Shown: positions 45,318 through 64,000 of the stretch, piece after piece | How the letters are laid out: each line of letters opens with the position of its first letter | Numbering within the stretch: position 1 is the first letter of the stretch | Origin: Octopus vulgaris | Taxonomy: Eukaryota | Direction of reading: 5' to 3' | Assembly (NCBI GenBank): GCA_951406725.2 | Contig: OX597815.1 | Location: 215,538,708-215,602,707 of the forward strand | DNA length: 64,000 nucleotides | Program-made: the position numbers and the translations under genes | Notes under the pieces: generated by a model | The model's database searches: none | Seen by the model: only the letters and a program-made list of their open reading frames with translations | What the model was told of the DNA's origin: nothing

Positions 45318-48300
45318 GAGATCGAGAAAATGACTTAGCGGACTGCTAAACGAGATGAAAATATGACTTAGCGGACCACCAAACGAGATCGATAAAATGA
45401 TTTAATGGACCGCCAAACGAGATCGATAAAATGACTGAGCGGACCGCCAATCGAGACGGATAAAATGAACTAGCTGGCCGCCAAACGAGATCGATAAAAT
45501 GATTTAATGGACCGCCAAACGAGATCTATAAAATGACTGCACGGACCGCCAATCGAGACAGATAAAATGACCTAGCGGGCCGCCAAAGGAGATCGATAAA
45601 ATAAATTAGCAGATGACGGAACGAGATCTATAAAATGACTTAGTGGACCGCTAAACGAGATCGACAAAATGACCTAGCGGACCGCCAAAATTGATCGATA
45701 AAATGAATTAGCGGACCGCCAAACGAGATCGAGAAAATGACTTAGCGGACCGCCAATCGAGACGGATAAAATGACCTAGCGGAAAGCCAAACGAGATCGA
45801 TAATATGACATAGTGGACCACCAAAGAAGATCGATAGAATGACTTAGTGGACCACAAAACGACATCGATAAAATGACTTTGCGGACCACGAAACGTTATC
45901 GATAAAATGACTTAGCGGAGCGCTAAACGAGATCGATAAAATGACCTAGCGGACCGCTAATTGAGATGGATAAACTGACCTAGCGGGCCGCCAAACGAGA
46001 TCGATAAAATGACTTAGCACACGACGTAAGGAGATCGATAAAATGACCCTAGCGGACCACCAAACAAGATCGATAAAATGACTTAGCGGACCACTAAACG
46101 AGATCGATAAAATGACTTAGCGGACCGCCAATCGTGACGGATAGAATGACCTAGCGGACTGCCAAACGAGATCGATAAAATGACCTAGTGGACCGCCAAA
46201 AGAGATCGATAAAATGACCGAGCGGACCATGAAACGAGATCGATAAAATGAATTAGCGGACCAATAAACGACATCGATAAAATGACTTAGCGGACCACCA
46301 AACAAGATCGATAGAATGACTTAGTGGACCACAAAACGACATCGATAAAATGACTTTGCGGACCACGAAACGTTATCGATAAAATGACTTAGCGGAGCGC
46401 TAAACGAGTTCGATAAAATGACCGAGTGGACCGCCAAACGAGTTCGATAAAATGACTTAGCGGACCGCTTAACGAGATCAAAAAATGACTTAGCGGACCA
46501 CCAAACGACATCGATAAAATGATTTAGTGGACCGCCAAACGAGATCGATAAAATGACTTAGCGGACCGCTAATTGAGACGGATAAAATGACCTAGCGGGC
46601 CCCCAAACGAGATCGATAAAATGACTTAGCACACGACGAAAGGAGATCGATAAAATGACCCGGGCGGACCACCAAACAAGATCGATAAAATGACTTAGCG
46701 GACCACTAAACAAGATCGATAAAATGACTTAGCGGACCGCCAATCGTGATGGATAAAATGACCTAGCGGACTGCCAAACGAGATCGATAAAATGACCTAG
46801 TGGACCGCCAAAAGAGATCGATAAAATGACCGAGCGGACCACCGAACGAGATCGATAAAATGAATTAGCGGACCAATAAACGACATCGATAAAATGACTT
46901 AGCGGACCACCAAACGACATCGATAAAATGATTTAGCGGACCAATAAACGACATCGATAAAATTACTTAGCGGACCACCAAACGAGATCAAAAAAATGAC
47001 CTAGCAGACCGCCAAAAAAGATCGATAAAATGAGTTAGCGGACAGCCAAACGAGATCGATAAAATGACATAGCAGACCGACAATCGAGACGGATACAATG
47101 ACCTAGCGGACGGCCAAACGAGATCGATAAAATGACTTAGCGGACCGCTAATTGAGACGGATAAAATGACCTAGCGGGCCGCCAAACGAGATCGATAAAA
47201 TGACTTAGCACACGACGAAAGGAGATCGATAAAATGACCCTAGCGGACCACCAAACAAGATCGATAAAATGACTTAGCGGACCACTAAACGAGATCGATA
47301 AAATGGCTTAGCGGACCGCCAATCGTGACGGATAAAATGACCTAGCGGACTGCCAAACGAGATCGATAAAATGACCTAGTGGACCGCCAAAAGCGATCGA
47401 TAAAATAACCGAGCGGACCATGAAACGAGATCGGTAAAATGAAATAGCGGACCACCACACAAGATCGATAGAATGACTTAGTGGACCACAAAACGACATC
47501 GATAAAAAGACTTTGCGGACCACGAAACGTTATCGATAAAATGACTTAGCGGACCGCTAAACGAGATCGATAAATTGACCGAGTGGACCGCCAAACGAGT
47601 TCGATAAAATGACTTAGCGGACCGCTAAACGAGATCAAAAAATGACTTAGCGGACCACCAAACGACATCGATAAAATGATTTAGTGGACCGCCAAACGAG
47701 ATTGATAAAATGACTTAGCGGACCGCTAATTGAGACGGATAAAATGACCTAGCGGGCCGCCAAACGAGATCGATAAAATGACGTAGCACACGACGAAAGG
47801 AGATCGATAAAATGACACTAGCGGACCACCAAACAAGATCGATAAAATGACTTAGCGGACCACTAAACGAGATCGATAAAATGACTTGGGGGAACGCCAA
47901 TCGTGACGGATAAAATGACCTAGCGGACCAATAAACGACATCGATAAAATGACTTAGCGGACCACCAAACGAGATCGATAAAATGATTTAGCGGACCGCT
48001 AATTGAGACGGACAAATTGACCTAGCGGGCCGCCAAACGAGATCGATAAAATGACTTAGCGGACCACCAAACGAGATCAACAAAATGACCTAGCAGACCG
48101 CCAAAAGAGATCGATAAAATGAGTTAGCGGACAGCCAAACGAGATCGATAAAATGACTTAGCGGACCGACAATCGAGACGGATAAAATGACCTAGCGGAC
48201 CGCCAAACGAGATCGATAAAATGACATAGCGGACCACCAAACGAGATCGATAAAATGAGTTAGCAGACAGCCAAACGAGATCGATAAAATGACTTAGCAG

Positions 48301-51300
48301 ACCGACAATCGAGACGGATACAATGACCTAGCGGACCGCCAAACGAGATCGATAAAATGACATAGCGGACCACCAAACGAGATCGATAAAATGAATTAGC
48401 GGACTACCAAACGAGATCGTTAAAATGACATAGTGGACCGCTAAACGAGATCAACAAAATGACCTAGCAGACCGCCAAAAGAGATCGATAAAATGAATTA
48501 GCGGACCAGCAAACGAGATCGATAAAATGACTTAGCACACGACGAAAGGAGATCGATAAAATGACTTAGCGGACCACTAAACGAGATCGATAAAATGACT
48601 TAGCGGACCGCGAATCGTGACGGATAAAATGACCTAGCGGACAGCCAAACGAGATCGATAGAATGACTTAGTGGAACGCCAAAAGATATCGACAAAATGA
48701 CTGATCGGACCACCAAACGAGATCGATAAAATGAATTAGCAGACCAATAAACGAGATCGATAAAATGACATTAGCGAACTGCTAAACATGATCGACAAAA
48801 TGAATGAGTGGACCGCCAAACGAGATCGATAAAATGAGCAAGTGGACCGCCAAACGAGATCGATAAAATGACAGCGGACCGCCAAACGAGATCGATAAAA
48901 TGATTTAGTGGACCAATAAACGAGATCGATAAAATGACATTAGCGGAACGCTAAACGTGATCGACAAAATGACTGAGCGAACCGCCAAACGAGATCGATA
49001 AAATGACCTAGTGGACCGCCAAACGAGATCGATAAAATGACTTGGCGGACCGCCAATCGAGACGGATAAAATGACCTAGCGGACCACCAAACTTGATCGA
49101 TAAAATGACATAGTGGACCACCAAACGAGTTCGATAAAATGAATTAGCGGACCACGAATCGAGGTCGATAAAATGACTTAGTGGACCGCAAAACGAGATC
49201 GATAAAATGACCGAGGGGACCGCCCAACGAGATCGATAAAATGACTTAGCGGACCGCTAAACGAGATCAAAATATGACCTAGCGGACCACCAAACGAGAT
49301 CGATAAAATGATTTAATGGACCGCCAAACGAGATCGATAAAATGACTGAGCGGATCGCCAATCGAGACGGATAAAATGAACTAGCGGGCCGCCAAACGAG
49401 ATCGATAAAATGATTTAATGGACCGCCAAACGAGATCGATTAAATGACTGAGCGGACCGCCAATCGAGACGGATAAAATGACCTAGCGGGCCGCCAAACG
49501 AGATCGATAAAATAACTTAGCAGATGACGGAACGAGATCGATAAAATTGACTTAGCGGACCACTAAACGAGATCGATAAAATGACTTAGCGCACCACCAA
49601 ACGCGATTGATAAAATGAAATAGCGGAACGCTAAACGAGATCGACTAAATGACCTAGCGGACCGCCAAAACAGATCGATAAAATGAGTTAGTGGACAGCC
49701 AAACGAGATCGATAAAATGACTGAGCGGACCGACAATCGCGACGGATAAAATGATCGATAAAATGAATTAGCCGACCACCATACGAGATCGATAAAATGA
49801 ATTAGCGGACCAATAAACGAGATCGATAAAATGACATTAGCGGACCGCTAAACGTGATCGACAAAATGACTGAGCGGACCGCCAAACGAGATCGATAAAA
49901 TTACAGCGGACCGCCAAGCGAGATCGATAAAATGACTTACTGGACCGCGAAATGAGATCGATAAAATGACTTATCGGACCGCCAATCGAGGCGGATAAAA
50001 TGACCTAGCGGACCGCCAAACGAAATCGATAAAATGACATAGCGGACCACTAAACGAGATCGATAAAAAGAATTAGCGGACCACCAAACGAGATCGATAA
50101 AATGACTTAGTGGACCGAAAAACGAGATCGATAAAATGACTTAGCGGACCACGAAACGTTATCGATAAAATGACTTAGCGGACCACCAAAAGAGATCGAT
50201 AAAATGAATTAGTGGACCGCCAAACTAGATCGATAAAATGATTTAGCAGACGACGAAACGAGATCAATAAAATGACTTAGCGGACCACCAAACGAGATCG
50301 ATAAAATGACTGAGCGGACCACCAAACGAGATCGATAAAACGATTTAGCGGACCGCTAAACGAGATCGACAAAATGACAGAGCGAACCGCCAAAAGAGAT
50401 CGATAAAATGAATTAGCGGACCGCCAAACGAGATCGATTAAATGACTTAGCGGACCGCCGATCGAGACGGATAAAATGACCTAGTGGACTGCCAAACGAG
50501 ATCGATAAAATGACATAGCGGACCACCAAATGAGATCGATAAAATGAATTAGCGCACCACCAAACGAGATCGATAAAATGACATTAGCGGACCGCTAAAC
50601 GTGATCGACAAAATGACTGAGCGGACCGCCAAACGAGATCGATAAAATGAGCAAGTGGACCGCCAAACGAGATCGATAAAATGACAGCGGACCGCCAAAC
50701 GAGATCGATAAAATGACTTAGTGGACTGTTAAACGAGATTGATAAAATGACTTATCGGACCGCCAATCGAGACGGATAAAATGACCTAGCGGACCGCCAA
50801 ACGAAATCGATAAAATGACATAGCGGACCACCAAACGAGATCGATAAAAAGAGTTAGCGGACCACCAAACGAGATCGATAAAATGACTTAGTGGACCGCA
50901 AAACGAGATCGATAAAATGACTTAGCGGACCACGAAACGTTATCGATAAAATGACTTAGCGGACCGCTAAACGGGATCGATAAAATGACCGAGTGGACCG
51001 CCAAACGAGATCGATAAAATGAATTAGCGGACCAATAAAATAAAATGAATTAGCGGACCAATAAAGTAAAATGATATAGCGGACCGCCTAACGTGATCGA
51101 CAAAATGATCCAGCGGACCGCCAAACAAGATCGATAAAATGACTTAGTGGACCCCCAAACGAGATCGATAAAATGACTTAGCGGACCGCCAATCGTGACG
51201 GATAAAATGACCTAGCGGACCGCCAAACGATATCGATAAAATGACCTAGTGGACCGCCAAAAGAGATCGATAAAATGATCGAGCGGACCACCAAACGAGA

Positions 51301-53022
51301 TCGATAAAATGAAAATAGCGGACCAATAAACGAGATCGATAAAATGACTTAGCGGACCGCTAAACGAGATCGACAAAATGACTGAGCGGACCACCAAACG
51401 AGATCGATTTATGACCAAGTGGACCACCAAACGAGATCGATAAAATTACAGCGGACCGCCAAACGAGATCGATAAAATGACTTAGCGGACCGCCAAACGA
51501 GATCGATAAAATGACTTAGCGGACCACGAAACATTATCGACAAAATGACATAGCGGAGCGCTAAATGAGATCAATAAAATGACCGACTGGACGGACAAAC
51601 GAGATCGATACAATGACTTAGTGGACTGCCATAAGAGATCGATAAAATGACCGAGCGGACCACCAAACGAGATCGATTAAATGAAGTAGTGGACCAATAA
51701 ACGAGATCAATAAAATGAATTAGCGGACCGCTAAACAAGATCGACAAAATAACTGAGCGGACCACCAAACGAGATCGATAATATGACCAAGTGGACCACC
51801 AAACGAGATCGATAAAATGACAGCGGACCGCCAAACAAGATCGATAAAATGACCTAGTGGACCACCAAACAAGATCGATAAAATGACTTAGCGGACCACC
51901 AAACGAGATCGATAAAATGATTTAGCGGACCGCTAAACGAGATCAACAAAATGAGCTAGCAGACCGCCAAAAGAGATCGATAAAATGAATTAGCGGACCA
52001 ATAAACGAGATCGATAAAATGACATTAGCGGACCGCTAAACGTGAGTGACAAAATGACTGAGCGAACCGCCAAACGAGATCGATAAAATGACCTAGTGGA
52101 CCGCCAAACGAGATCGATAAAATGACTTAGCGGACCGCCAATCGAGACGGATAAAATGACCTAGGGGACCGCCAAACGAGATCGATAAAATGATTTAGCG
52201 GACCGCTAAACGAGATCAACAAAATGAACTAGCAGACCGCCAAAAGAGATCGATAAAATGAATTAGCGGGGCACCAAACGAGATCGATAAAATGAATTAG
52301 CGGACCACCAGACGAAATCGATAAAATGACTTAGTGGACCGCAAAACGAGATCGATAAAATGACTTAGCGGACCACGAAACGTTATCGATAAAATGACTT
52401 AGCGGACCGCTAAACGAGATCGATAAAATGACCGAGTGGATCGCCAAACGAGATCGATAAAATGAATTAGCGGACCGCTAAACGAGATCAAAATATGACT
52501 TAGCGGACCACCAAACGAGATCGATAAAATGATTTAATGGACCGCCAAACGAGATCGATAAAATGACTGAGCGGACCGCCAATCGAGACGGATAAAATGA
52601 TCTAGCGGGCCGCCAAACGAGATCGATAAAATAACTTAGCAGATGACGGAACGAGATCGATAAAATGACTTAGCGGACCACCAAACGAGATCGATAAAAT
52701 TGACTTAGCGGACCACTAAACGAGATCGATAAAATGACTTAGCGCACCACCAAACGAGATCTATAAAATGACCTTAGCGGACCGCTAAACGAGATCGACA
52801 AAATGAACTAGCGGACCGCCAAAAGAGATCTATGAAATGAGTTAGCGGACAGCCAAACGAGATCGATAAAATGACTTAGCGGACCGACAATCGAGACGGA
52901 TAAAATGACCTAGCAGACCGCCAAACGAGATCGATAAAATGATATAGCGGACCACCAAACGAGATCGATAAAATGAATTAGCGGACCACCAAACGAGATC
53001 GATAAAATGAGTTAGCGGACAG

Positions 53023-53026
<4 letters not shown>
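45318..53026. repeat. 34-bp tandem satellite/minisatellite array (~227 diverged monomers, higher-order structure)
   Basis: Consensus ACTTAGCGGACCGCCAAACGAGATCGATAAAATG; period 34 (e.g. 45421 to 45455); recurring variant monomers. Confidence 0.98.

Positions 53027-53105
<79 letters not shown>
53026..53105. repeat. (TA)n microsatellite, ~40 units
   Basis: Pure AT dinucleotide run between the 34-bp array and the LINE. Confidence 0.98.
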
Positions 53106-53109
<4 letters not shown>

Positions 53110-54195
53110 ACGTACACAGAAGAATTCAATGTAGAGGTTGGGGTCCACCAGGGTTCAGTACTCAGCCCCCTCCTATTTATCATAGTCCTCCAGGCAATAA
53201 CGGAGGAATTCAAGACAGGTTGTCCCTGGGAGCTCCTCTACGCTGACGACCTTGCTCTAATTGCTGAGTCACTATCAGAACTGGAGGAGAAGTTCCAGGT
53301 GTGGAAGGTGGGTTTAGAATCGAGGGGCCTTAGAGTCAACCTAGCTAAAACCAAAGTCCTAATAAGTAGGAAGGCACGCAAACCACAAATCCCTTCAGGT
53401 AGATGGCTCTGCTCGATCTGTAGTAGAGGCGTCGGTAGAAGCTCTATAAGATGTACCCAGTGTAAGCTATGGACACATAAGAGGTGCAGCAATGTCAAAG
53501 GTAGGCTAACTGGGAAGATAGTTTTTGTATGTGGCAGATGCTCGGGAGCATTAACCTCCGAAAATCTGCAGAAAACAACTTCCGTGACTTTCGAGGGGGA
53601 AAAACTAGAAGTAGGTGATAGCTTCCATTATCTAGGTGACCAAGTCAGTAGTGGGGGTGGGTGCGCTGAAAGTGTAACTGCTAGAATAAGAATAGCCTGG
53701 GCAAAGTTTAGGGAGCTCTTACCTCTGCTGGTGACTAAAGGCCTCTCGCAAAGAATAAAAGGCAGACTGTATGATGCATGTGTACGAACAGCCATGCTAC
53801 ATGGCAGTGAAACATGGGCCGTGACTGCTGAGGACATGCGTAAGCTCGCGAGGAATGAAGCCAGTATGCTCCGATGGATGTGTAATGTCTGTGTACATAC
53901 TCGACAGAGCGTTAGTACCTTGAGAGAAATGTTGTACCTAAGAAGCATCAGTTGTGGTGTGCAAGAGAGACGATTGCGCTGGTATGGTCATGTGGCGAGA
54001 ATGGATGAAGATAGGTGTGTGAGAAAGTGCCAATCCCTAGCAGTTGAGGGAACCCGTGGAAGAGGTAGACCCAGGAAAACCTGGGACGAGGTAGTGAAGC
54101 ACGACCTTCGAACTTTAGGCCTCACTGAGGAAATGACCAGCGACCAAGACCTTTGGAAATATGCTGTACGTGAGAAGACCAGGCAGGACAAGTGA
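53104..54195 (+). pseudogene. Truncated RTE reverse transcriptase ORF (C-terminal ~360 aa, no stops); N-terminal RT and endonuclease missing
   Basis: Motifs GVHQGSVLSPLLF, LLYADDLAL (YADD at 53239-53250), GLRVNLAKTKVL, FHYLG, RRLRWYGHVARM, RGRGRPRKTW. The initiating ATG lies in the flanking microsatellite/TSD, so it is not the native start. Confidence 0.93.
53410..53541 (+). other. PHD-type zinc finger (C4HC3) encoded inside the RT ORF
   Basis: CSIC-x10-CTQC-x4-H-x2-C-x14-CGRC, with W two residues before the His and F two residues before the last Cys pair. Confidence 0.8.
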
Positions 54196-54282
54196 GCCCA
54201 GCCCACTTATGAATGCCTTTCCTCCCTTGGACACAAAGACCTGTTGAGGCAAGCGAAGTCGATATAGAACCTCATCCGACAA

Positions 54283-55054
54283 CAGGCACCCATGCCAACC
54301 CCCCTTGCTTGCGAAGACATGTTGGGGCAAGCGAAAGCGAAATCGAAATCGAATTGAACCAGCCAGGATCCCTGGTCTGGTGGTACGTAAAAGCACTATC
54401 CGACTCGTGGCCGATGCCAGCGCCACCTCCACTGGCTTCCGTGACGGTGGCACGTAAAATACACCAATCCGACCGTACGACAGGCACCCATGCCAACCCC
54501 CTTTGCTTGCGAAGACATGTTGAGGCAAGCGAAATCGAAATCGAATTGAACCAGCCAGGATCCCTGGTCTGGTGGTACGTAAAAAGCAATATCAGACTCG
54601 TGGCCGATGCCAGCACCGCATCGACTGGCTTCCGTGCCGGTGGCACATAAAATACACCAATCCGACCGTACGACAGGCACCCATGCCAACCCCCTTTGCT
54701 TGCGAAGACATGTTGGGGCAAGCGAAATCGAAATCGAATTGAACCAGCCAGGATCCCTGGTCTGGTGGTACGTAAAAAGCAATATCAGACTCGTGGCCGA
54801 TGCCAGCGCCGCCTCCACTGGCTTCCGTGCCGGTGGCACGTAAAATACATCAATCCGACCGTACGACAGGCACCCATGCCAACCCCCTTTGCTTGCGAAG
54901 ACATGTTGGGGCAAGCGAAATCGAAATCGAATTGAACCAGCCAGGATCCCTGGTCTGGTGGTACGTAAAAGCACTATCCGACTCGTGGCCGATGCCAGCA
55001 CCGCATCGACTGGCTTCCGTGCCGGTGGCACATAAAATACACCAATCCGACCGT
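54283..55054 (+). repeat. Four tandem ~193-bp units in the LINE 3' UTR
   Basis: CAGGCACCCATGCCAACCCCC begins at 54283, 54481, 54674 and 54867 (spacings 198, 193, 193). Confidence 0.95.
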
Positions 55055-55268
55055 GGCCGTTGCCAGCCTCGCCTGGCACCTGTGCAGGTGGCACGTAAAA
55101 AGCACCCACTACACTCACGGAGTGGTTGGCGTTAGGAAGGGCATCCAGCTGTAGAAACATTGCCAGATAAGACTGGAGCCCGGTGCAGCCTTCTGGCTTC
55201 CCAGATCCCCGGTCGAACCGTCCAACCCATGCTAGCATGGAGAACGGACGTTAAACGATGATGATGAT

Positions 55269-55310
55269 ATATATATATATATGTATACATATATATATAT
55301 ATATATATGT

Positions 55311-55366
<56 letters not shown>
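55269..55366. repeat. Compound (AT)n microsatellite with GTATAC interruptions
   Basis: Direct reading; its start forms the right copy of the LINE TSD. Confidence 0.95.
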
Positions 55367-55370
<4 letters not shown>

Positions 55371-55530
55371 AGGAGTGGCTGTGTGGTAAGTAGCTTGCTA
55401 ACCAACCACATGGTTCCGGGTTCAGTCCCACTGCGTGGCATCTTGGGCAAGTGTCTTCTGCTATAGCCCCGGGCCGACCAATGCCTTGTGAGTGGATTTG
55501 GTAGACGGAAACTGAAAGAAGCCTGTCGTG

Positions 55531-55566
<36 letters not shown>

Positions 55567-55787
55567 CGTTTGTGTGTCTGTGTTTGTCCCCCTAGCATTG
55601 CTTAACAACCGATGCTGGTGTGTTTACGTCCCCGTCACTTAGCGGTTCGGCAAAAGAGACTGATAGAATAAGTACTGGGCTTACAAAAGAATAAGTACCG
55701 GGGTCGAGTTGCTCGATTAAAGGTGGTGCTCCAGCATGGCCGCAGTCAAATGACTGAAACAAGTAAAAGAGAGTAAGAGTAAAAAGA

Positions 55788-55790
<3 letters not shown>
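55367..55790 (+). mobile_element. Full-length bipartite tRNA-derived SINE with internal (TA)n(TG)n tract (resembles octopus OR-type/CORE-like SINEs)
   Basis: A-box-like TGGCTGTGTGG (55376-55386); B-box-like GGTTCAGTCCC (55419-55429); TTGGGCAAGT after the head; internal microsatellite 55529-55566; 3' half ending in a GAGTAA(A)-type tail. Homologous copies occur elsewhere in the window. The family name is from recall, not a search. Confidence 0.85.
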
Positions 55791-55827
<37 letters not shown>

Positions 55828-55948
55828 ACATATATATATATACACATATATATATACCGGAGTAAACACATAAATGTGAAACAAGGTGGAAAAAAGAGTA
55901 CTCAAATACCAGTGGTAGAGTAATATGCTTTATTTTCTGCTGCTTAAA

Positions 55949-55949
<1 letters not shown>

Positions 55950-55983
<34 letters not shown>

Positions 55984-56037
55984 TGTATGTATACATATAT
56001 ATATGTATACATATATATATGTATACATATATATATG

Positions 56038-56103
<66 letters not shown>

Positions 56104-56182
56104 TGTATGTATACATATATATATGTATACATATATATATGTATACATATATATATATATGTATACATATATATATGTATAC

Positions 56183-56225
<43 letters not shown>

Positions 56226-56230
56226 TATAT
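55950..56230. repeat. Compound AT/GTATAC microsatellite with a 120-bp internal duplication
   Basis: GCATGTATGTATACATAT... at both 55981 and 56101. Confidence 0.9.
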
Positions 56231-56602
56231 CGTTGAATAAAAACACTTTTAAATATTTTTTGCTGTTTTTAACCTTCTCTTAATAAATCTGAACTCAGTT
56301 ATTTCGTCTATGATACGAATACGAAACTAACATGACGTTGAAATCGGAATCAAGAGTTTAAACCTTAAACTCCATGTTTAAGTTAAAGATAATGGAAAGA
56401 CGATGGACTCGTTCGATTGTTTTAAAGCAATTTGTGTTAAATATTTGGTTTCTGGAAAAAAATTTCATTGAAAGTTACTTTCTACACTCGATATACGAAG
56501 GTAAATGAATTACATTTTGAGATTTTTCGTTTGACTTTGGGAAAAATCACCCCTAGTGATGCTTCGTAACTCTAGAAAAAAATTGATAGAGTGAGGGACT
56601 GA

Positions 56603-56642
<40 letters not shown>

Positions 56643-56654
56643 AGAGAGAGAGAG
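56603..56654. repeat. (TA)n followed by (GA)n microsatellite
   Basis: Direct reading. Confidence 0.9.
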
Positions 56655-57269
56655 AAGCAGATTCTAACAGATAAATAATTTGACAGCAATAGATGAAGTC
56701 AGAAGAAGCAAATACGGAACTACAGCGGCTGCAAATGAGTTTCTGACTTTTCGCAAAGCATTGTGGGATTGTCGTTTCAATATTAATGGCGGCGAGTTTG
56801 TAAAAAATCTGAATTCAATTTCTGGACTTTTCTGTCTTCAATCTGAAAATATTTGCCTTGTTTATTCACTGAATATTGTTTGTAAGTTTGAGCTTGTATG
56901 AATACATATTACTTAAAAGGATTTTAATGAGTAACGATTGTAAACAAACAGGAATTGTGAATGAAGTCAACAGAAGAATTTCCGAAAAAGTAAGAATTTA
57001 TTAATATTTTTGTCTTAAGTTTTGTGTCAATTATGATGTATTGGGATAAATATATTGATTCTTAAACAAGAGACCCTTTTCTACCACCTACCTTCACACA
57101 CACACACACACACACACGTTTAGACGTTCACATGATTAACAAGGCTAACGTGGGGTGGCTAGAAATAGCAGTCAAATTACTCTCAGATCCATACAAGGAG
57201 CCCAATAACAAATCAACTTAGTTGTTTATGAAAGAAATCGTTATTTAGAGTGTGAAAACGTGTTTTTCT

Positions 57270-57415
57270 CTCTTTTTTGCTGGATCACCGACTTTAGTCG
57301 AGCAAATCGACCCCAGGACTTATTCTTTGTAAGCCTAGTACTTATTCTATCGGTCTCTTTTGCCGTAAACACAGCATCGGTTGCCAAGCGGTGTTTGGGG
57401 GGGGGGGCAAACATA
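57270..57415 (-). mobile_element. SINE 3'-half fragment
   Basis: TTTAGTCGAGCAAATCGACCCCAGGACTTATTCTTTGTAAGCCTAGTACTTATTCTATCGGTCTCTTTTGCCG is the reverse-complement homologue of 55648-55720. Confidence 0.85.
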
Positions 57416-57502
57416 TACATACACACACTCACATATATATATATATATATATATAGGTTAATATAGGGCGTAACAAATATCAGAAAATCAAAAAAAAAAT
57501 GT

Positions 57503-57980
57503 GTGTAATAGGTGTAAAACAACTTCCTATGAACGAATATGAAAAAAAAAATTCGCGCACGCGAAAGGGGGTGGGGGAGAGGCCTCGGAAAATTCACATC
57601 GGGAAGTTCCGAAAGCGTCTGAGGAGCTGACCCGGGCACCAAAACAAAAAAAAAATAGTGTAATATGTGTAAAACAACTTGCTCTAAACGAATATGACAA
57701 AAAAAAATGCGCTCTCGCGAAAGAGGGGTGGGGGAGAGGCCTCGGAATATTTATATCGGGAATTTCCGAAAGCGTCTGAACCGGGCACAAAAACAAAAAC
57801 AAAAACAGCGTAATAGGTGTAAAACAACTTGCTCTAAACGACTATCATGAAAAAAATGCGCGCTCGCGAAAGGGGGGTGGGGGAGAGGCTTCGGAAATTT
57901 CACATCTTCAGTCCACGGCCTTTAAACTAAGAAAAAATAGTGTTATTGGTGTAAAACTACTTGTTCTAAACGAGTATCAA
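57503..57980. repeat. ~150-bp minisatellite, three copies plus a partial fourth
   Basis: GTGTAATAGGTGTAAAACAACTT...CGCGAAAGGGGGTGGGGGAGAGGCCTCGGAA units start at 57503, 57658, 57808 and 57940. Confidence 0.85.
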
Positions 57981-58903
57981 GAACACACACTCACACATGA
58001 ATCATAAACTCCGTATTTCGCAAAAAAAAAAAAAATAAAGAGAAGAAATTCTGGAAAAAGTGAAGAAATGTTGGATCTCATTCCTTGGTTAAAGCTATTT
58101 TAAACATTAAATTTATGCTTTTCTTTGAAATAGTTCAGATATATGCAATTCTTCTCACTTATTAAGATGCATTTATCAGAAAAAAAGAGACAGAAAAAAT
58201 TATTATTTTGTGTCAATCCTTCCCTAATTATCCTTTATTAATTAGTTTTGGCGTGTATTTTTTTCCCAAATTTATTTTTTCACCTTTACAACACTGTTTA
58301 GTAAAGCAATTAATTATCTTTATAATTTGCATATTTGACTTATTAATCAAAATTCTCTAGATGTAATATATACTAAGTAATGCATCCTTCATTTATGTGT
58401 TCTGTTCTGTATTATGCATGCGTGACTGTTTGTATGTAAGTGTGTTTAACTGTGCACATGAATGTGAATATTAAAGAACATATTTATTTACTATGATTGT
58501 TATTTTCAGAACAAATAAATCTTTTGGCTGTTATGTTATTGATGTTATTATTATTGCTAGTTAAAGGGTGGTGACTTGGCTGAATATTTTGAGTCTTGTA
58601 GTATGTAGTTGTGTTAGTCAATATTCTGAGTTCAAATCCAACTCATTTCTTTATCATCATTATCGATGGACCACTCAAAGAGGTATGTATACATTATCAT
58701 TTTCGTAACATAATTTCTGTAATTTCAAGATGTTTCTGACACGTATTTTGATTCACATGGCGGAGATCCAACATTTCTTCACTTTTTCCAGAATTTCTTC
58801 TCTTTATTTTTTTTTTTTTGCGAAATACGGAGTTTATGATTCATGTGTGAGTGTGTGTTCTTGATACTCGTTTAGAACAAGTAGTTTTACACCAATAACA
58901 CTA
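57938..58903. repeat. 142-bp inverted repeat pair (57938-58079 / 58763-58903) around a 683-bp AT-rich spacer
   Basis: Arms are reverse complements, identical by eye except A14 versus T13. Confidence 0.92.
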
Positions 58904-58905
58904 GA

Positions 58906-59032
58906 GTGCTGGAGTGTTCATGTCCCTGTAACTTAGCTGTTTGTCAAAAGTGAAAGATAGATTAAATACTAGGCCTATAAAAAATAAGACCTGGGGTCGA
59001 TTTTCTCGAATAAAGGCGCTGCTGCGGCATGG
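58906..59032 (+). mobile_element. Diverged SINE 3'-half fragment
   Basis: GTAACTTAGCTGTTTGTCAAAAG...TACTAGGCCTA...CCTGGGGTCGATTTTCTCGAATAAAGGCG is homologous to 55610-55740. Confidence 0.75.
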
Positions 59033-59059
59033 AATACATGTATGTATATATATATATTT

Positions 59060-59240
59060 GTATGTCTGTTTATTTCTCCAACATCGTTGGACAACTGGTG
59101 TTGGTGTGTACAGGTCCCCGAACTTATCGGTTCGGGAAAAGGGACCGATAGTTTAAATACTAGGCCTACAAAGTGTAAGTCCTGGGAGGATTTACACGAA
59201 TAAAGGCATTGCTCTACCATGGCCGCAGTCAAATAATTGC
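59060..59240 (+). mobile_element. Diverged SINE 3'-half fragment
   Basis: ACTTATCGGTTCGGGAAAAGGGACCGATAG...TACTAGGCCTACAAAG...CATGGCCGCAGTCAAAT. Confidence 0.8.
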
Positions 59241-59712
59241 ATAAATTAAGTGTTGAAAATAGAAAATAACCAGAAAAGTTTATATTCTATTAACTACATT
59301 AGTGAGGGAGATAACTAAAAATCAAATTTTAGAGTTACTTCTCTTGACATATTAATAAAAGACATGACAGTTTAAGATGTAGGCGCGTTTGTTTTTCGCA
59401 TGCGAAGGGCACACTTGCATTCGTGCAAGAATAGACATACACATGCACATTTTCTGCTGTTTACTTTAACAAATACACATTATAATTTACATTTAATTAC
59501 ACCTGAAAACTATGTAAAGTACTCCCCATATCTAGTACCACCCTTTGGACATGATCAGGTTTTTATTTTGTTTTAGATAGTATATATGCGTATGTGGGTA
59601 TATACACGTATATATTTATGAATGCATGTATATAAATATGTATATTTGTATGTATGTATGTATGTATATATATATTAGTATGAAATGAATTTATATATAT
59701 ATATTTATGCAT

Positions 59713-59824
59713 ATGCCCGAGCACAGCCTTTAGTCAAACAAAACGTACCCCAGGGCTTATCCTTTGGAAGCTTAGTACTTCTATCTTTTTTTACTCTTTT
59801 GCGGAACCGTAAAGTTAGCGGGGC
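59713..59824 (-). mobile_element. Old SINE 3'-half fragment
   Basis: GAGCACAGCCTTTAGTCAAAC...CCCCAGGGCTTAT...CTCTTTTGCGGAACCG..AAGTTA resembles the reverse complement of the SINE 3' half. Confidence 0.65.
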
Positions 59825-59959
59825 ATATGTGTGTGTTGTGCTCACCCACAAACACACATACCTCCGAACACGCACACATAGATACATGCAAAGATACACA
59901 CTTGTTGCTATTTATGCTTTAAATATGTTGACCATAAAACCGTTACGTTCTGAAGAAAT

Positions 59960-60440
59960 GTATGTGTGTGCTTTCATTTCTGTGTCTGTGTGTGAGCGCG
60001 CATGTGTGACAGTGTTTCCAGTTCAATGTGTGTGTGAGTGAGGGAGTGTGTAAATGTGTATTTTGATTTCTCGGTGCGTGTGTGAGTGTGTAACTGTTTT
60101 CATTTCTGTGTGTATGTGCGTACGTTTGTGTGTGACTATTTTCATTTCTGTGTGGGTGTTTGTTTGGATGTGCAACTATTTTCATTTCTATGTGTGTGTG
60201 TGAGTGTTTGGATGTGTAACTGTGTATTGTCATTTCTATGTGTGTGTGTTTTGTACGTATGTGAGTGTGTGTGAGTATTTTTATTTCAGTGTTTGTGGGA
60301 CTGTTTGTGTTTATTTGTGTGCGAATGTGTTTTGTGTTAGTATTTTAATTTCAGTGTTTGTGTGTGTGAGAGAGTGTTTTTATTTGTGTGTGTACATGTG
60401 TGTGCTCGACTGAGTGTTTTTAATTGTTTGTGTGCGTGCG
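59960..60440. repeat. Degenerate TG-rich low-complexity tract with a recurring TTTTCATTTCTGTGTG motif
   Basis: Direct reading; a related tract lies at ~61570-61825. Confidence 0.75.
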
Positions 60441-60792
60441 ACAATTACTACTACAACAAACACTTTGACCATTTCTAAGATACCCACATTTGAGATCACT
60501 AACTACTAAATCAAAATAAGTTCAATTTATTACACCTTTAGTGACTTCAGATATTGCTCATATTTTTCTCATATGGCGACAATGTATTAACTTCACAAGT
60601 GGATAAAACAACTTCTCATACTGGCGTGGAGGGGGCTGAGATTATAACTGCGAGTGCCAAGCACCCAATGCCTCCCCCGTATCTACATACCTGGATCGGC
60701 CGTAATTGGTCTCATTCTGAGATCTCTCGGGAGTAGAATATTTATGACTATAGAAGTTAACTTGTTACAGGCTTCGTAGACTTTTGTCGCTA

Positions 60793-61208
60793 TTTACTCT
60801 TTTATTCTCATTTACTTGTTTCAGTCATTTGATTGTGGCCATGCTGGAGCACCAACTTTAGTCGAACATATCGACCCCAGGACTTATTCTTTGTAGGCCT
60901 AGTACTTATTCTATCAGTCTCTTTCGCTGAACCTCTTAGTTACGGGGACGTAAACAGACTAGCATCAGTTGTGAAGCAATGTTTGAGGACAAACACAGAC
61001 ACAAACCCACAAACATACACACACACATATATATAAACATATATACGACAGTCTTCTTTCAGTTTCCGTCTACCAACTCGACTCAGAAGTATTTGATTGG
61101 CCCGAGGCTATATTTGAATACACTTGCCGAAGGTGCCACACTGTGGGACTGAACCCAGCACATTGCGATTCGTAAGCAAACTGTTTATCACACGGCCACT
61201 CCTACGCC
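60793..61208 (-). mobile_element. Full-length bipartite SINE copy (minus strand)
   Basis: Reverse complement of the 55367-55790 layout: tail TTTACTCTTT, 3' half, internal CA/TA tract, TTCAGTTTCCGTCTACCAA, GGGACTGAACC (B box), CACACGGCCACTCCTACGCC (head). Confidence 0.85.
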
Positions 61209-62225
61209 TATCAATATATATATATATTGATATATATATACCTACATACATGTATATAGAAGCACATAGTCGCGCACACACACATACACACACACACACA
61301 CTCACTCACACACACACACACACACACACACATGAAAACTCAGTTATATTTGCTTCTTGGCAAAAATGCATTTAAGTGGAAAGAACTTAAACATAAAAAT
61401 TAATATCAAACCAACGAAAGTAACTCCCGCCAATCCCTTACTTGAAAAGAGTTACCTCCCTTGATTGATGAAAAGCGTTTTCCTCGTGTCTTGGAGACTC
61501 TAAGGGATGGTACGGGAGTTTTTTCCATTTAATTAAGAAACTTTGCATCTGTATGCGTGCGCGCATGCTCGAGTGTTTGTCCGCGTGTTTGTGTGAATAT
61601 GTAGCTGTGTATTTTCATTTCTGTGTGTGTATTTGTGCGTATGTGTGTGTGTGTGTGTGAGAATTTTTATTCAGTGTTTGTGTGCGTGGGACGGTTTTTA
61701 TTTGTGTGAGTGTGAAAGTGTGTGTTGGTATTTTCATTTCAGTGTTTGTGTTTGTGTGAATGTTTTTATTTGTGTGTGTAAGTGTGTGTGAGCGACTGTG
61801 TTTTTATTCGTTTGTGTGTGTGCGACAATTACAGCTACAACAAACACTTTAAGCATCTCTAAGATACCCACATTTGCAGATCCCTAAGTTCTAAATGAAA
61901 AGAAGTTCAATTTATTGCGACTTCAGATTTGCGTTTGTTAAGCACCCAATGCCCCCCGTATGTACATACATGGATCGGCCATAATTGGCCTCATTCGGAG
62001 ATCTCTCGGGTGTGGAATATTTATGACTATAGAAGTTAACTTGTTACAGGTTTTGTTTATGGCTTAACTTTTGTAGATTTTGGGAAGTCCATAGATGTTA
62101 CTGGCTTTGCAGTGAAATCTAGTCAAGCAATTTGTCTGGTTTTTTGTTAAATCGTGTTGGAACTGGTGGATAAGAGTAGACAGTTTGGTCATTATCTTCG
62201 ATTGACTGTAGTTGTTGATGTTTTT

Positions 62226-62353
62226 AACCGATGCTGGTGTGTTTTACTCCCTGTATTTTAGCGGTTCGGCAAAAGAGAATAAGTTAGAATAAATACTAGG
62301 CTTACAAAGAATAAGTGCTGCGGACGATGTGCTCGACTAAAGGCGGCGCTCTA
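62226..62353 (+). mobile_element. SINE 3'-half fragment
   Basis: AACCGATGCTGGTGTGTTT...TTAGCGGTTCGGCAAAAGAGA...TACTAGGCTTACAAAGAATAAG...GCTCGACTAAAGGCGG. Confidence 0.82.
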
Positions 62354-62354
62354 G

Positions 62355-62410
<56 letters not shown>

Positions 62411-62756
62411 TACAGATATACATGTATATACCCACACATGCATATATACTATCTAAAACAAAAAAAGAAACTTGATTATGTCCGAAGAGTAGTACTAGAT
62501 AACATTATTACTTTATATATTTGTGGGGTGTAGTGAAATGTAAATGATCAGCTAGTCAATGTTTATTTGTTAAAGGTACCAGCAGATTACTTGGATGTGT
62601 ATGTGTCTCTGTTGGTGTGCGCATGGTCGTGTCTTCTTTCGCAGGCGTCAAACAAACACACCTATTACAGAAATTACAACATGAAAGGTATTATATGATG
62701 TCTAGGAGATATTTTCAGCTATCTCCCTAGTGAACAGGTTATAGACTTTTGTCGCT

Positions 62757-62922
62757 ATTTACTCTTTTACTCTCATTTACTTTTTTCAGTCATTTAACTG
62801 TGGCCATGCTGGAACAACACCTTCAGTCGAGCATATCGACCCCCAGGACTTATTCTTTGTAGGCCTAGTACTTATTCTAACAGTCTCTTTCGCTGAACCT
62901 CTAAGTTACGGGGACGTAGACA
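62757..62922 (-). mobile_element. SINE 3'-half fragment (duplicate of 60793-60955)
   Basis: Shares the flank AGACTTTTGTCGCTA and variants such as CTTTCGCTGAACCTCT with the 60793 copy. Confidence 0.85.
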
Positions 62923-63045
<123 letters not shown>

Positions 63046-63466
63046 ATGTATATAAAAGCACGTAGTCGCACACACAGAAATGGAAATACACACATCTAAC
63101 CCTAACTCATAGTTTCATCTCCCTTTGGCATTTAAACTTAAATATAAAAATGAATCTCAAACCAAGGAAAGTAACTCCCTCTACATCCCTTACTTGACAA
63201 GAGTTACATCCGTTAATTGATACTAATACAATTTAACATTAGGAAACGTAAATAGTGTTTGAATAATAATAGGCTCTAAGCGATGTATGGAGAGTTGCCT
63301 TCCTTACAAGTATATAATACTAAAAGTAGTTAAAGGAAGGAATTTTACTCATAGCTCTCGGAAACTGTTTGGGATAGAATGGGAGTTGTTTCCCTTTCAT
63401 TGAGAAAACTTGCATCTGTATGTCTGATGGTTCATGCGTGCATGCTCGTGTGCCATTCGAGTGCGA

Positions 63467-63511
<45 letters not shown>

Positions 63512-63517
63512 AACATA

Positions 63518-63681
63518 TACGACGGGATTCTTTCAGTTTCCTTCCACCAAATCCAATCACAAGGATTTGGTCGGCCCGGGGCTACTGTAGAAGACAATTG
63601 GACAAGATGCGAGGCAGTGGGAATGAAACTGAAACCATGTGGTTCGTAAGCAAACTACTTACCACATAGCCATTCGTGCGC
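63518..63681 (-). mobile_element. SINE 5' half (tRNA-derived head), diverged
   Basis: TACGACGGGATTCTTTCAGTTTCC...GGTCGGCCCGGGGCTA...CTACTTACCACATAGCCATTCGTGCGC, the reverse-complement homologue of 55367-55530. Confidence 0.82.
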
Positions 63682-63694
63682 TGATATTCATATA

Positions 63695-63840
63695 TACGAC
63701 GGTCTTCTTTCAGTTTCTCTCTACCAACCCTACTCAGAATACATTGGTCGGCCCGGGGGTATAGTTGAATACACTTGCCGAAGGTACCACGCTGTTGGAT
63801 TGAACCCAGCACATTGAGGTTGGTGAGCAAACACTCTCAC
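63695..63840 (-). mobile_element. Second tandem SINE 5'-half fragment
   Basis: TACGACGGTCTTCTTTCAGTTTC...GAATACACTTGCCGAAGGT...TGAACCCAGCACATTG; shares variants with 61045-61185. Confidence 0.8.
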
Positions 63841-64000
63841 ACACATGCGCGAGCGCAAACAGACACAGAGATGAAAGCACACATATTGGCTGACCCACAC
63901 GCTCATACAATTTCTTGAGAGTGTCACGGTTTTAAGGTCAACATATTTAAAACATGAAATAGCTTTGCATGTATCTATGTGCATGAGTGCGGAAGTGTGG

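Follow-up and report, generated by a model that had tools for sequence, protein, structure and literature searches.

Predicted pseudoknots related to RTE retrotransposon leaders behind the reading frame of an Octopus vulgaris LINE

The Locus

The window, which is the whole stretch of 64,000 nt of Octopus vulgaris DNA that we have analyzed, consists mostly of satellite DNA. A 65-bp array (1-45317, about 697 copies with 98% matches) adjoins a 34-bp array (45318-53026, about 228 copies), and a LINE lies at the edge of this satellite region (1-53026), inside an (AT)n run. The features of the LINE are listed below. PK-A and PK-B are two predicted compact pseudoknots of the same build, and names starting with L are loci used for comparison.

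53113..54195, + strand: open reading frame (ORF) of an RTE-clade LINE, 5'-truncated, 360 codons, directly 3' of the (AT)n run, stop codon at 54193-54195
54196..54281, + strand: spacer with an older partial copy (54236-54269) of the first hairpin region of the tandem unit, 88% over 34 nt
54282..55054, + strand: four tandem units of 189-198 nt each, from TRF and sequence comparison
54440..54465, + strand: PK-A of unit 1, with a stem-1 mismatch, re-registering to a 4-bp stem is possible
54633..54658, + strand: PK-A of unit 2, outer stem-1 pair lost
54826..54851, + strand: PK-A of unit 3, all pairs kept, one G.U in stem 2
55018..55043, + strand: PK-A of unit 4, outer stem-1 pair lost
55081..55106, + strand: PK-A in its original context, with homologues in RTE 5' leaders (L009:321-346, L022:334-359)
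55112..55124, + strand: short hairpin CACTC/GAGTG between the knots, loop bases 55117-55119 variable
55131..55164, + strand: PK-B, with stem 1 GTT(A)GGA/TCC-AGC, stem 2 GGCA/TGCC and an A-rich loop
55173..55175, + strand: CTG at about the place of the start codon in leaders, likely a relic of a start codon
55215..55266, + strand: ordinary RTE 3' terminal stem-loop and (GAT)n tail, common to the short 3' UTRs of relatives

The reading frame contains the end of the reverse transcriptase (RT) domain, a PHD-like zinc finger and the C-terminus (Pfam RVT_1, 1.7e-13; PHD, 9.7e-5, which is below the Pfam cut-off). Its best match among 679 longer relatives is an RT protein from Octopus bimaculoides (84%). 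Many relatives, at about 50% identity, encode both endonuclease and RT in a single ORF of about 1040-1100 amino acids. The copy in the window does not have the 5' two thirds of this ORF, and it ends at 55266 with a stem-loop, (GAT)n and then (AT)n. Judging from its sequence, the element is a 5'-truncated RTE-type LINE: the RVT_1 domain is found in the window itself, while the single-ORF architecture with AP endonuclease and RT comes from the relatives. We take the clade to be RTE from this architecture and from characteristic motifs, rather than from a tree with named clades.

Other repeats are found 3' of the LINE. By eye, a SINE-like repeat with a tRNA-like start extends from 55367 to 55780, and similar pieces appear again at about 57300, 60830, 61050, 62790 and 63520; ARAGORN finds no match over 53000-64000. 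At 59117-59152 and 55618-55660, copies of a common SINE-like repeat contain a further candidate for a compact pseudoknot, also with an A-rich loop. The one at 59117 is the only match other than PK-A in a generic pseudoknot scan of 53111-64000. A 149-bp tandem repeat with G-rich runs (2.8 copies) is located at 57484-57906.

The Tandem Array

The original prediction, made from the window by itself, described units of about 193 nt with hairpins and a compact pseudoknot, multiplied in the 3' UTR of the LINE. The array is indeed there: TRF gives a period of 193, with 4.0 copies and 94% matches, and the units correspond to 54282-54479, 54480-54672, 54673-54865 and 54866-55054. The hairpin arms sit at the predicted positions, with a correction for the first hairpin arm of unit 1, which reads CTTGCTTGC. 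A half-motif is present once per unit as predicted (54379, 54571, 54764 and 54957), without the 5' arm of stem 1. No unit copies are found elsewhere in the window.

The pseudoknots also begin where they had been placed, at 54440, 54633, 54826, 55018 and 55081. None of the four units fully matches the sequence quoted for them, CGTGC-C-GGTG-GCACG-TAAAATA-CACC: CGTGA is found in unit 1, GCACA in units 2 and 4, and CATC (G.U) in unit 3. A stem-1 pair is lost in three of these four copies, and a 4-bp core of stem 1 is kept in all of them. The fifth copy had been said to keep all its pairs; pairing is in fact retained, although the first pair only as U.G. This change and GCACA are both CpG-type transitions. 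With a 4-bp stem 1 and stem 2 kept throughout, PK-A can form in the five copies of the window. For those copies in which loop 1 is C, local folds also give a simple hairpin, closed over 3 nt, in competition with the knot.

The array is a mosaic of two variant sets. Units 1 and 4 differ from units 2 and 3 at two columns, and units 1 and 3 differ from units 2 and 4 at four columns located 20-55 nt further on, which indicates recombination or template switching. Across the four units 11 of the 189 ungapped columns vary, and the stems are not spared: variation affects 4 of 67 stem columns and 7 of 122 columns elsewhere (p=1). Within the pseudoknot stems, 3 of 18 positions are variable. Stem and non-stem columns thus vary alike, and the functional multiplication suggested by the original prediction is not supported.

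Folding does not single out the unit either. Its nested fold is no better than that of shuffled sequences (z -1.35), and the terminal part gives a similar value (z -1.28); pseudoknots are not considered in these folds. Dinucleotide shuffles of one unit contain a comparable compact knot in 17 of 2000 cases when a 5-bp stem 1 is required, and in 60 of 2000 with 4 bp. The tandem copies count as one observation, not four, and the case that can be made for the knot from the window alone is weak. We consider that the array is likely a neutral iteration; the feature to which the original prediction drew attention is probably the least important part of the element.

The 3' End

The region 55215-55266 is the conserved 3' feature of the element. 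It matches locus L075 with 89% over 54 nt (E 2.5e-12), and the 3' UTRs of relatives, mostly about 50-150 nt long, end in the same way. As in other RTE elements, a terminal stem-loop is followed by a microsatellite tail instead of poly(A). Neither PK-A nor PK-B corresponds to the 3' recognition stem-loop of stringent LINEs. In fact, neither knot is found up to 300 nt after the ORF in any of the 39 relatives whose sequence continues for 90 nt or more past the end of the ORF. The octopus family itself is represented by the 5'-truncated copy in the window, and this comparison of 3' UTRs therefore concerns its relatives. A native 3' UTR signal, as proposed originally, is not supported: the homologues of the knots are in 5' leaders.

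The terminal region 55095-55163 matches the leader of L009 with 81% over 69 nt (E 3.7e-10), shorter matches are found to other leaders, and 55124-55164 matches a motif in the 5' leaders of relatives. PK-B is separated from the 3' stem-loop by about 50 nt, with no ORF between them. From the matches to leaders, 55055-55266 appears to be a piece of leader fused to the 3' end of an RTE element, and the knots in this region very probably derive from a leader. Such bipartite units with RTE 5' and 3' parts are known in RTE-derived SINEs (PMC5786205).

PK-A in the Leaders of Distant RTE Elements

A protein-guided scan of 9 of 64 parts gave 79 metagenome loci, kept from the best 80 of 342 confirmed matches. 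Ten further loci come from genome contigs, six of them RTE-like. A descriptor scan for PK-A on both strands of 85 loci (484,802 bases) gave four matches, vs. 0-5 in 20 shuffles. Two of the four, in L009 and L022, are at the homologous place in the 5' leader, before PK-B. The distance from the start of PK-A to the PK-B core is 52 nt in L009, 51 nt in L022 and 54 nt in the window. PK-A reads CGAGA-T-GGTG-TCTCG-GTAAAAA-CACT in L009 and GAGA-C-GGTG-TCTC-GATAAAAA-TACT in L022. The two elements are not close to each other: their proteins are 44% identical (each is 46% identical to that of the window), they lie on opposite sides of a 100/98 tree split, and they are not sisters.

In an alignment of the five window copies with both relatives, 94% of the cells are paired, a value reached in 9 of 500 shuffles. 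Two pairs of stem 1 are changed on both sides. Stem 2 keeps its four pairs and changes by wobble only, with no compensatory change. The covariation in PK-A may correspond to one double event, because L009 and L022 share the same stem 1. Support for PK-A from the sequences of its relatives is thus real but thin. The original idea of a cis-acting conserved pseudoknot is supported by this covariation in distant elements. A third carrier is suggested by the translation of a leader: the database protein P0003 has the N-terminus DGVTIKIL, vs. DGVSIKIL from the L022 leader, and a PK-B-like read-through 18 codons later.

PK-A is present in only two of nine leaders with PK-B; the other seven have different structures at this place or are cut short. 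A third possible leader pseudoknot takes the place of PK-A in L013:38-80, L017:70-180 and L088:3940-3985. Its hairpin has a TGCCTT loop which can pair with AAGGC downstream, its stem pairs are changed, and it is duplicated in L017. L006:1-80 and L023:140-200 contain another structured motif 5' of PK-B. This motif looks ribozyme-like, but at the gathering threshold it matches nothing in Rfam. At about the place of 55112-55124, most relatives have a predicted hairpin, the sequence of which varies.

PK-B and the Start Codon

PK-B, which does not appear in the original prediction, is the better conserved of the two knots. In 11 sequences, pairing in its stem 1 amounts to 97% and includes two compensatory pairs, a level reached in 1 of 500 shuffles; the register of the lower stem 1 is ambiguous, as RNAalifold gives the same upper stem but a displaced lower one. 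Stem 2, scored as the best of 11 positions, has 4-5 bp in seven sequences and 3 bp in three, and is absent in L014.

Nine of ten loci with an ORF of at least 900 codons have PK-B 5' of the ORF; L087 has a full ORF without PK-B. In all nine, the first in-frame ATG 3' of the knot is located 26-38 nt past the end of the PK-B core. A tenth, truncated element (L088) has an in-frame ATG at +29. In the eight loci with stem 2, the spacers between stem 2 and the ATG are 9, 11, 11, 11, 12, 15, 16 and 20 nt long (median 11.5). Both the spacers and the N-terminal sequences are unrelated among loci. A figure of 2e-8 may be calculated for this spacing, which is post hoc and ignores kinship, and we have not relied on it. 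Some observations go against strict positioning: three of ten leaders have an out-of-frame ATG 4-5 nt before the in-frame one, and the frame of L088 contains another in-frame ATG already 5' of the knot. In the window the corresponding place has CTG; a loose-end consensus of other copies reads ATG, TTG and GTG in three runs, with an agreement of only 0.52-0.55. Within the limits of this weak consensus, these triplets fit a decaying start codon.

PK-B with stem 2 is also kept in four ORF-less SINE-like repeats (L105, L110, L115 and L107). These repeats have no start codon to place, which counts against a role in start-codon choice. Three of them (L105:1400-1600, L110 and L115) belong to one SINE-like family, in which a tRNA-like head is combined with PK-B, including its stem 2, and with an RTE-like 3' end; this element, from another animal, shows a clean succession of head, RTE 5' part and RTE 3' part. 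A second SINE-like family (L039, L052, L060, L065 and L066) has the PK-B core without stem 2 and ends like the 3' UTR of the neighbouring RTE element. L013:1-30 resembles the conserved RTE 5' UTR domain of Ceph-SINEs (supplement of PMC5786205) and ties this domain and PK-B to one leader. We should also note that animal-type RTE elements and SINEs are found in contigs of six bacterial genome bins (L084-L089); eukaryotic contamination is the most likely origin of these contigs.

Abundance and Variation in Read Sets

In three related read sets, 55,000-122,000 contig records per run fall on 54866-55262; a fourth run (X23) has 30 reads in total and none on the unit. Summed depth peaks over both knots, where it exceeds the depth of the 5' half of the unit about 12- to 30-fold or more. 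These sums, which cover 54866-55262, are not copy numbers. The depth of the terminal unit is far above that of the 193-nt unit, with no head or target-site duplication seen, and the tandem junction has a low summed depth compared to the unit. Joints in other genomes skip or repeat a module of 64 nt or place the unit in tandem; the array is therefore unlikely to be an assembly artefact, and the number of modules varies.

Among the 40 of 123 variant rows listed, 14 variant sites fall in 55062-55165 and are mostly located in loops: 11 of the 46 unpaired bases are affected, vs. 3 of the 58 stem bases (p=0.008). The base in loop 1 of PK-A varies between A, C and T across read sets, and the GCACA variant is common in other runs.

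Possible Functions

Of the four roles suggested by the original prediction (RT recognition, nuclease block, translation control or an unknown ribozyme), translation control has the best support, with the difference that the place of action would be the 5' leader. PK-A is predicted to be an H-type pseudoknot which distant RTE retrotransposons carry before PK-B, and the pair would likely load ribosomes and place the start codon on an RNA that is probably uncapped. The leader knots may work like the basal pseudoknot of HCV-type IRES elements, while remaining outside that class. A LINE would have captured a bipartite non-autonomous RTE unit, consisting of a leader piece and a 3' end, either by template switch or by insertion, and the distal 3' stem-loop would have taken over as the signal for reverse transcription. 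A hairpin and PK-A module of about 63 nt, and then the 193-nt block, may have been iterated by slippage or recombination. No ORF lies 3' of the knots in the window, where the 3' stem-loop is likely the RT signal and the array would be a tolerated iteration. We give even chances to this explanation as a whole, in which a pair of leader knots is relocated to the tail and then neutrally iterated. A role of the leader knots in translation initiation, modelled on other leaders, could equally well turn out to be right or wrong, and the case is better for PK-B than for PK-A.

The main alternative, possible if tentative and drawn by analogy with other elements, is that the RTE protein binds to the leader knots, which would be required in cis for integration and hence kept by non-coding bipartite units. 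The preservation of PK-B with stem 2 in SINE copies with a tRNA-like head and in other ORF-less repeats would be expected in this case, as would the great abundance of the terminal unit, whose depth peak lies over the two knots. The R2 protein binds a 5' pseudoknot (PMC6765202), and RTE 5' parts recur in SINEs (PMC5786205). However, protein binding alone does not predict a narrow distance between knot and AUG with unrelated spacers, and one SINE-like family (L039, L052 and L060) has lost stem 2. A function of the multiplied module in the 3' UTR, where more copies would mean stronger RT recognition, ribosome capture or stability, is improbable. The 4-bp stem 1 and stem 2 are kept in all five copies, the module is iterated at two scales with a number that varies among family copies, and the 3' UTR of a published octopus RTE, with about 600 nt (PMC9115989), is far longer than those of relatives. 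Against this function, stems are not spared across units, GCACA is frequent in other runs, relatives do without the motif in 3' UTRs of about 50-150 nt, the tandem junction has little depth compared to the unit, and the copy in the window is 5'-truncated.

Three other explanations concern the knot itself. PK-A is compact and located upstream of the ORF in leaders, and self-cleaving ribozymes often start RTE leaders (PMC6765202, PMC8501958), so it might be an exonuclease block which protects uncapped, ribozyme-cut RNA from 5'-3' decay. We find this quite improbable, as neither the window stretch nor 12 relative loci match any xrRNA in Rfam and the spacing to the AUG would remain unexplained. 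Known xrRNAs have a ring-forming junction, which is missing from the PK-A fold. It is very improbable that the unit holds a novel self-cleaving ribozyme. HDV-like and twister ribozymes are present in RTE leaders, and the 5-bp hairpin with the A-rich linker after it resembles the start of pistol; nevertheless, simple patterns for CTGANGA and for twister, pistol or HDV loops are absent from 54196-55262, Rfam gives no match, invariant unpaired bases are too few, and a transcript cut behind the ORF would lose its RT signal. Finally, the pairing might be due to chance and copied by duplication, since 0.9-3% of shuffled units hold such a knot and the unit folds no better than shuffles. The same fold, with a changed stem 1 and at the same distance from PK-B, is found in two distant elements, which makes chance extremely improbable.

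The proposed role in translation may be extended. PK-A, the hairpin and PK-B might form a putative minimal RTE ribosome-binding element of about 85 nt, which we regard as unlikely. We attach the same low probability to the idea that ORF-less bipartite SINEs and the 3' UTR of the octopus LINE keep this element in order to dock ribosomes and capture nascent RTE protein, in analogy to the mode of action proposed for Alu through SRP9/14. If true, ribosome docking would account for the repeated presence of pieces of RTE 5' UTRs in the SINE bodies of animals, and the iterated 3' copies would be an enhancer of ribosome capture.

These results bear on how single-ORF LINEs translate an RNA that is probably uncapped, and on why SINEs retain internal pieces of RTE 5' UTRs. 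A small pair of covarying pseudoknots at a narrow distance from the AUG offers precise mutations for both questions. If it does act in translation, it would be among the smallest initiation elements. RTE UTRs are currently under engineering for gene insertion (PMC13708176).

Comparison with Known Systems

Neither the bipartite organization of RTE units nor structure in RTE leaders is new. Both pseudoknots, their covariation and the AUG spacing are not described in Rfam or in the literature we have searched, which did not include the repeat databases Repbase and Dfam or closed journals; the motif strings are matched in three unrelated papers only. Rfam gives AT-repeat artefacts and chance rows for the window stretch, with two rows in 54196-55262 (E 3.7 and 9.6), and no matches at the gathering threshold for 12 relative loci. 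The poor fit to hammerhead and HDV ribozymes that had been noted originally was confirmed with simple core patterns, which also gave no twister or pistol core. An HDV fold around the GCC/GGC hairpin was rejected by eye, as there is no partner for P1.

Luteoviral frameshift knots, preQ1-I and pistol P1 are compact H-type pseudoknots in which loop 1 has 1 nt and loop 3 is A-rich. PK-A has the same topology and size, but no Rfam match. A -1 frameshift pseudoknot was rejected: no slippery heptamer is found up to 20 nt upstream in any of seven copies, and those in the window come after a stop codon. In viral contigs, the PK-A pattern gives four loci, all without the stem-1 arm, and two PK-B patterns give 0 and 11 loci, the 11 without RTE-like context. 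A protein scan finds no relatives among 129 viral stretches.

The basal pseudoknot of HCV is located about 11-12 nt before the AUG. In type IV IRES elements a pseudoknot positions the AUG (PMC7354566, PMC2212637), and those of HCV and pestiviruses resemble the RTE leaders in a short, fairly fixed distance between knot and AUG and in covariation (PMC7354566, PMC8789048, PMC2212637). The RTE knots differ in their small length of about 26-34 nt and in having no domain II, domains IIIa-IIIf, IIId GGG loop or GA[U/C]A tetraloop. Membership in this class was rejected: the defining domains are absent, the loops of adjacent hairpins vary freely, and there is no Rfam match. A knot shortly before the AUG is found in the leaders of relatives only; no AUG follows in the window.

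Structured 5' leaders that contain HDV-like or twister ribozymes are known from RTE, R2 and L1Tc elements, where they support translation independent of a cap (PMC6765202, PMC8501958). Our elements share with them a single-ORF non-LTR element, a structured leader and the proposed translation of uncapped RNA. The difference is that PK-A and PK-B match no ribozyme model and lie directly before the AUG, or behind the ORF in the window. The octopus element RTE-2_OV and related RTE LINEs (Petrosino 2022, PMC9115989), which we have compared by description rather than by sequence, have the same clade, zinc finger, ORF of about 1100 amino acids and long 3' UTR (about 600 nt); the available part of that paper describes no UTR structure.

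The closest known organization is that of Bov-A/Bov-tA, RTE-N and the Ceph-SINEs (Kojima 2018, PMC5786205), which combine an internal piece of RTE 5' UTR, an RTE 3' end and a microsatellite tail, like the element in the window. In the available part of that work no pseudoknot is proposed and transcription-factor binding is suggested; the available supplement has no match to the PK-B core string or to the PK-A string of the window. Duplicated 5' UTR domains are known in AviRTE (PMC5786205). Unlike the units described in 2018, the bipartite piece in the window sits behind the ORF of a LINE and is partly iterated.
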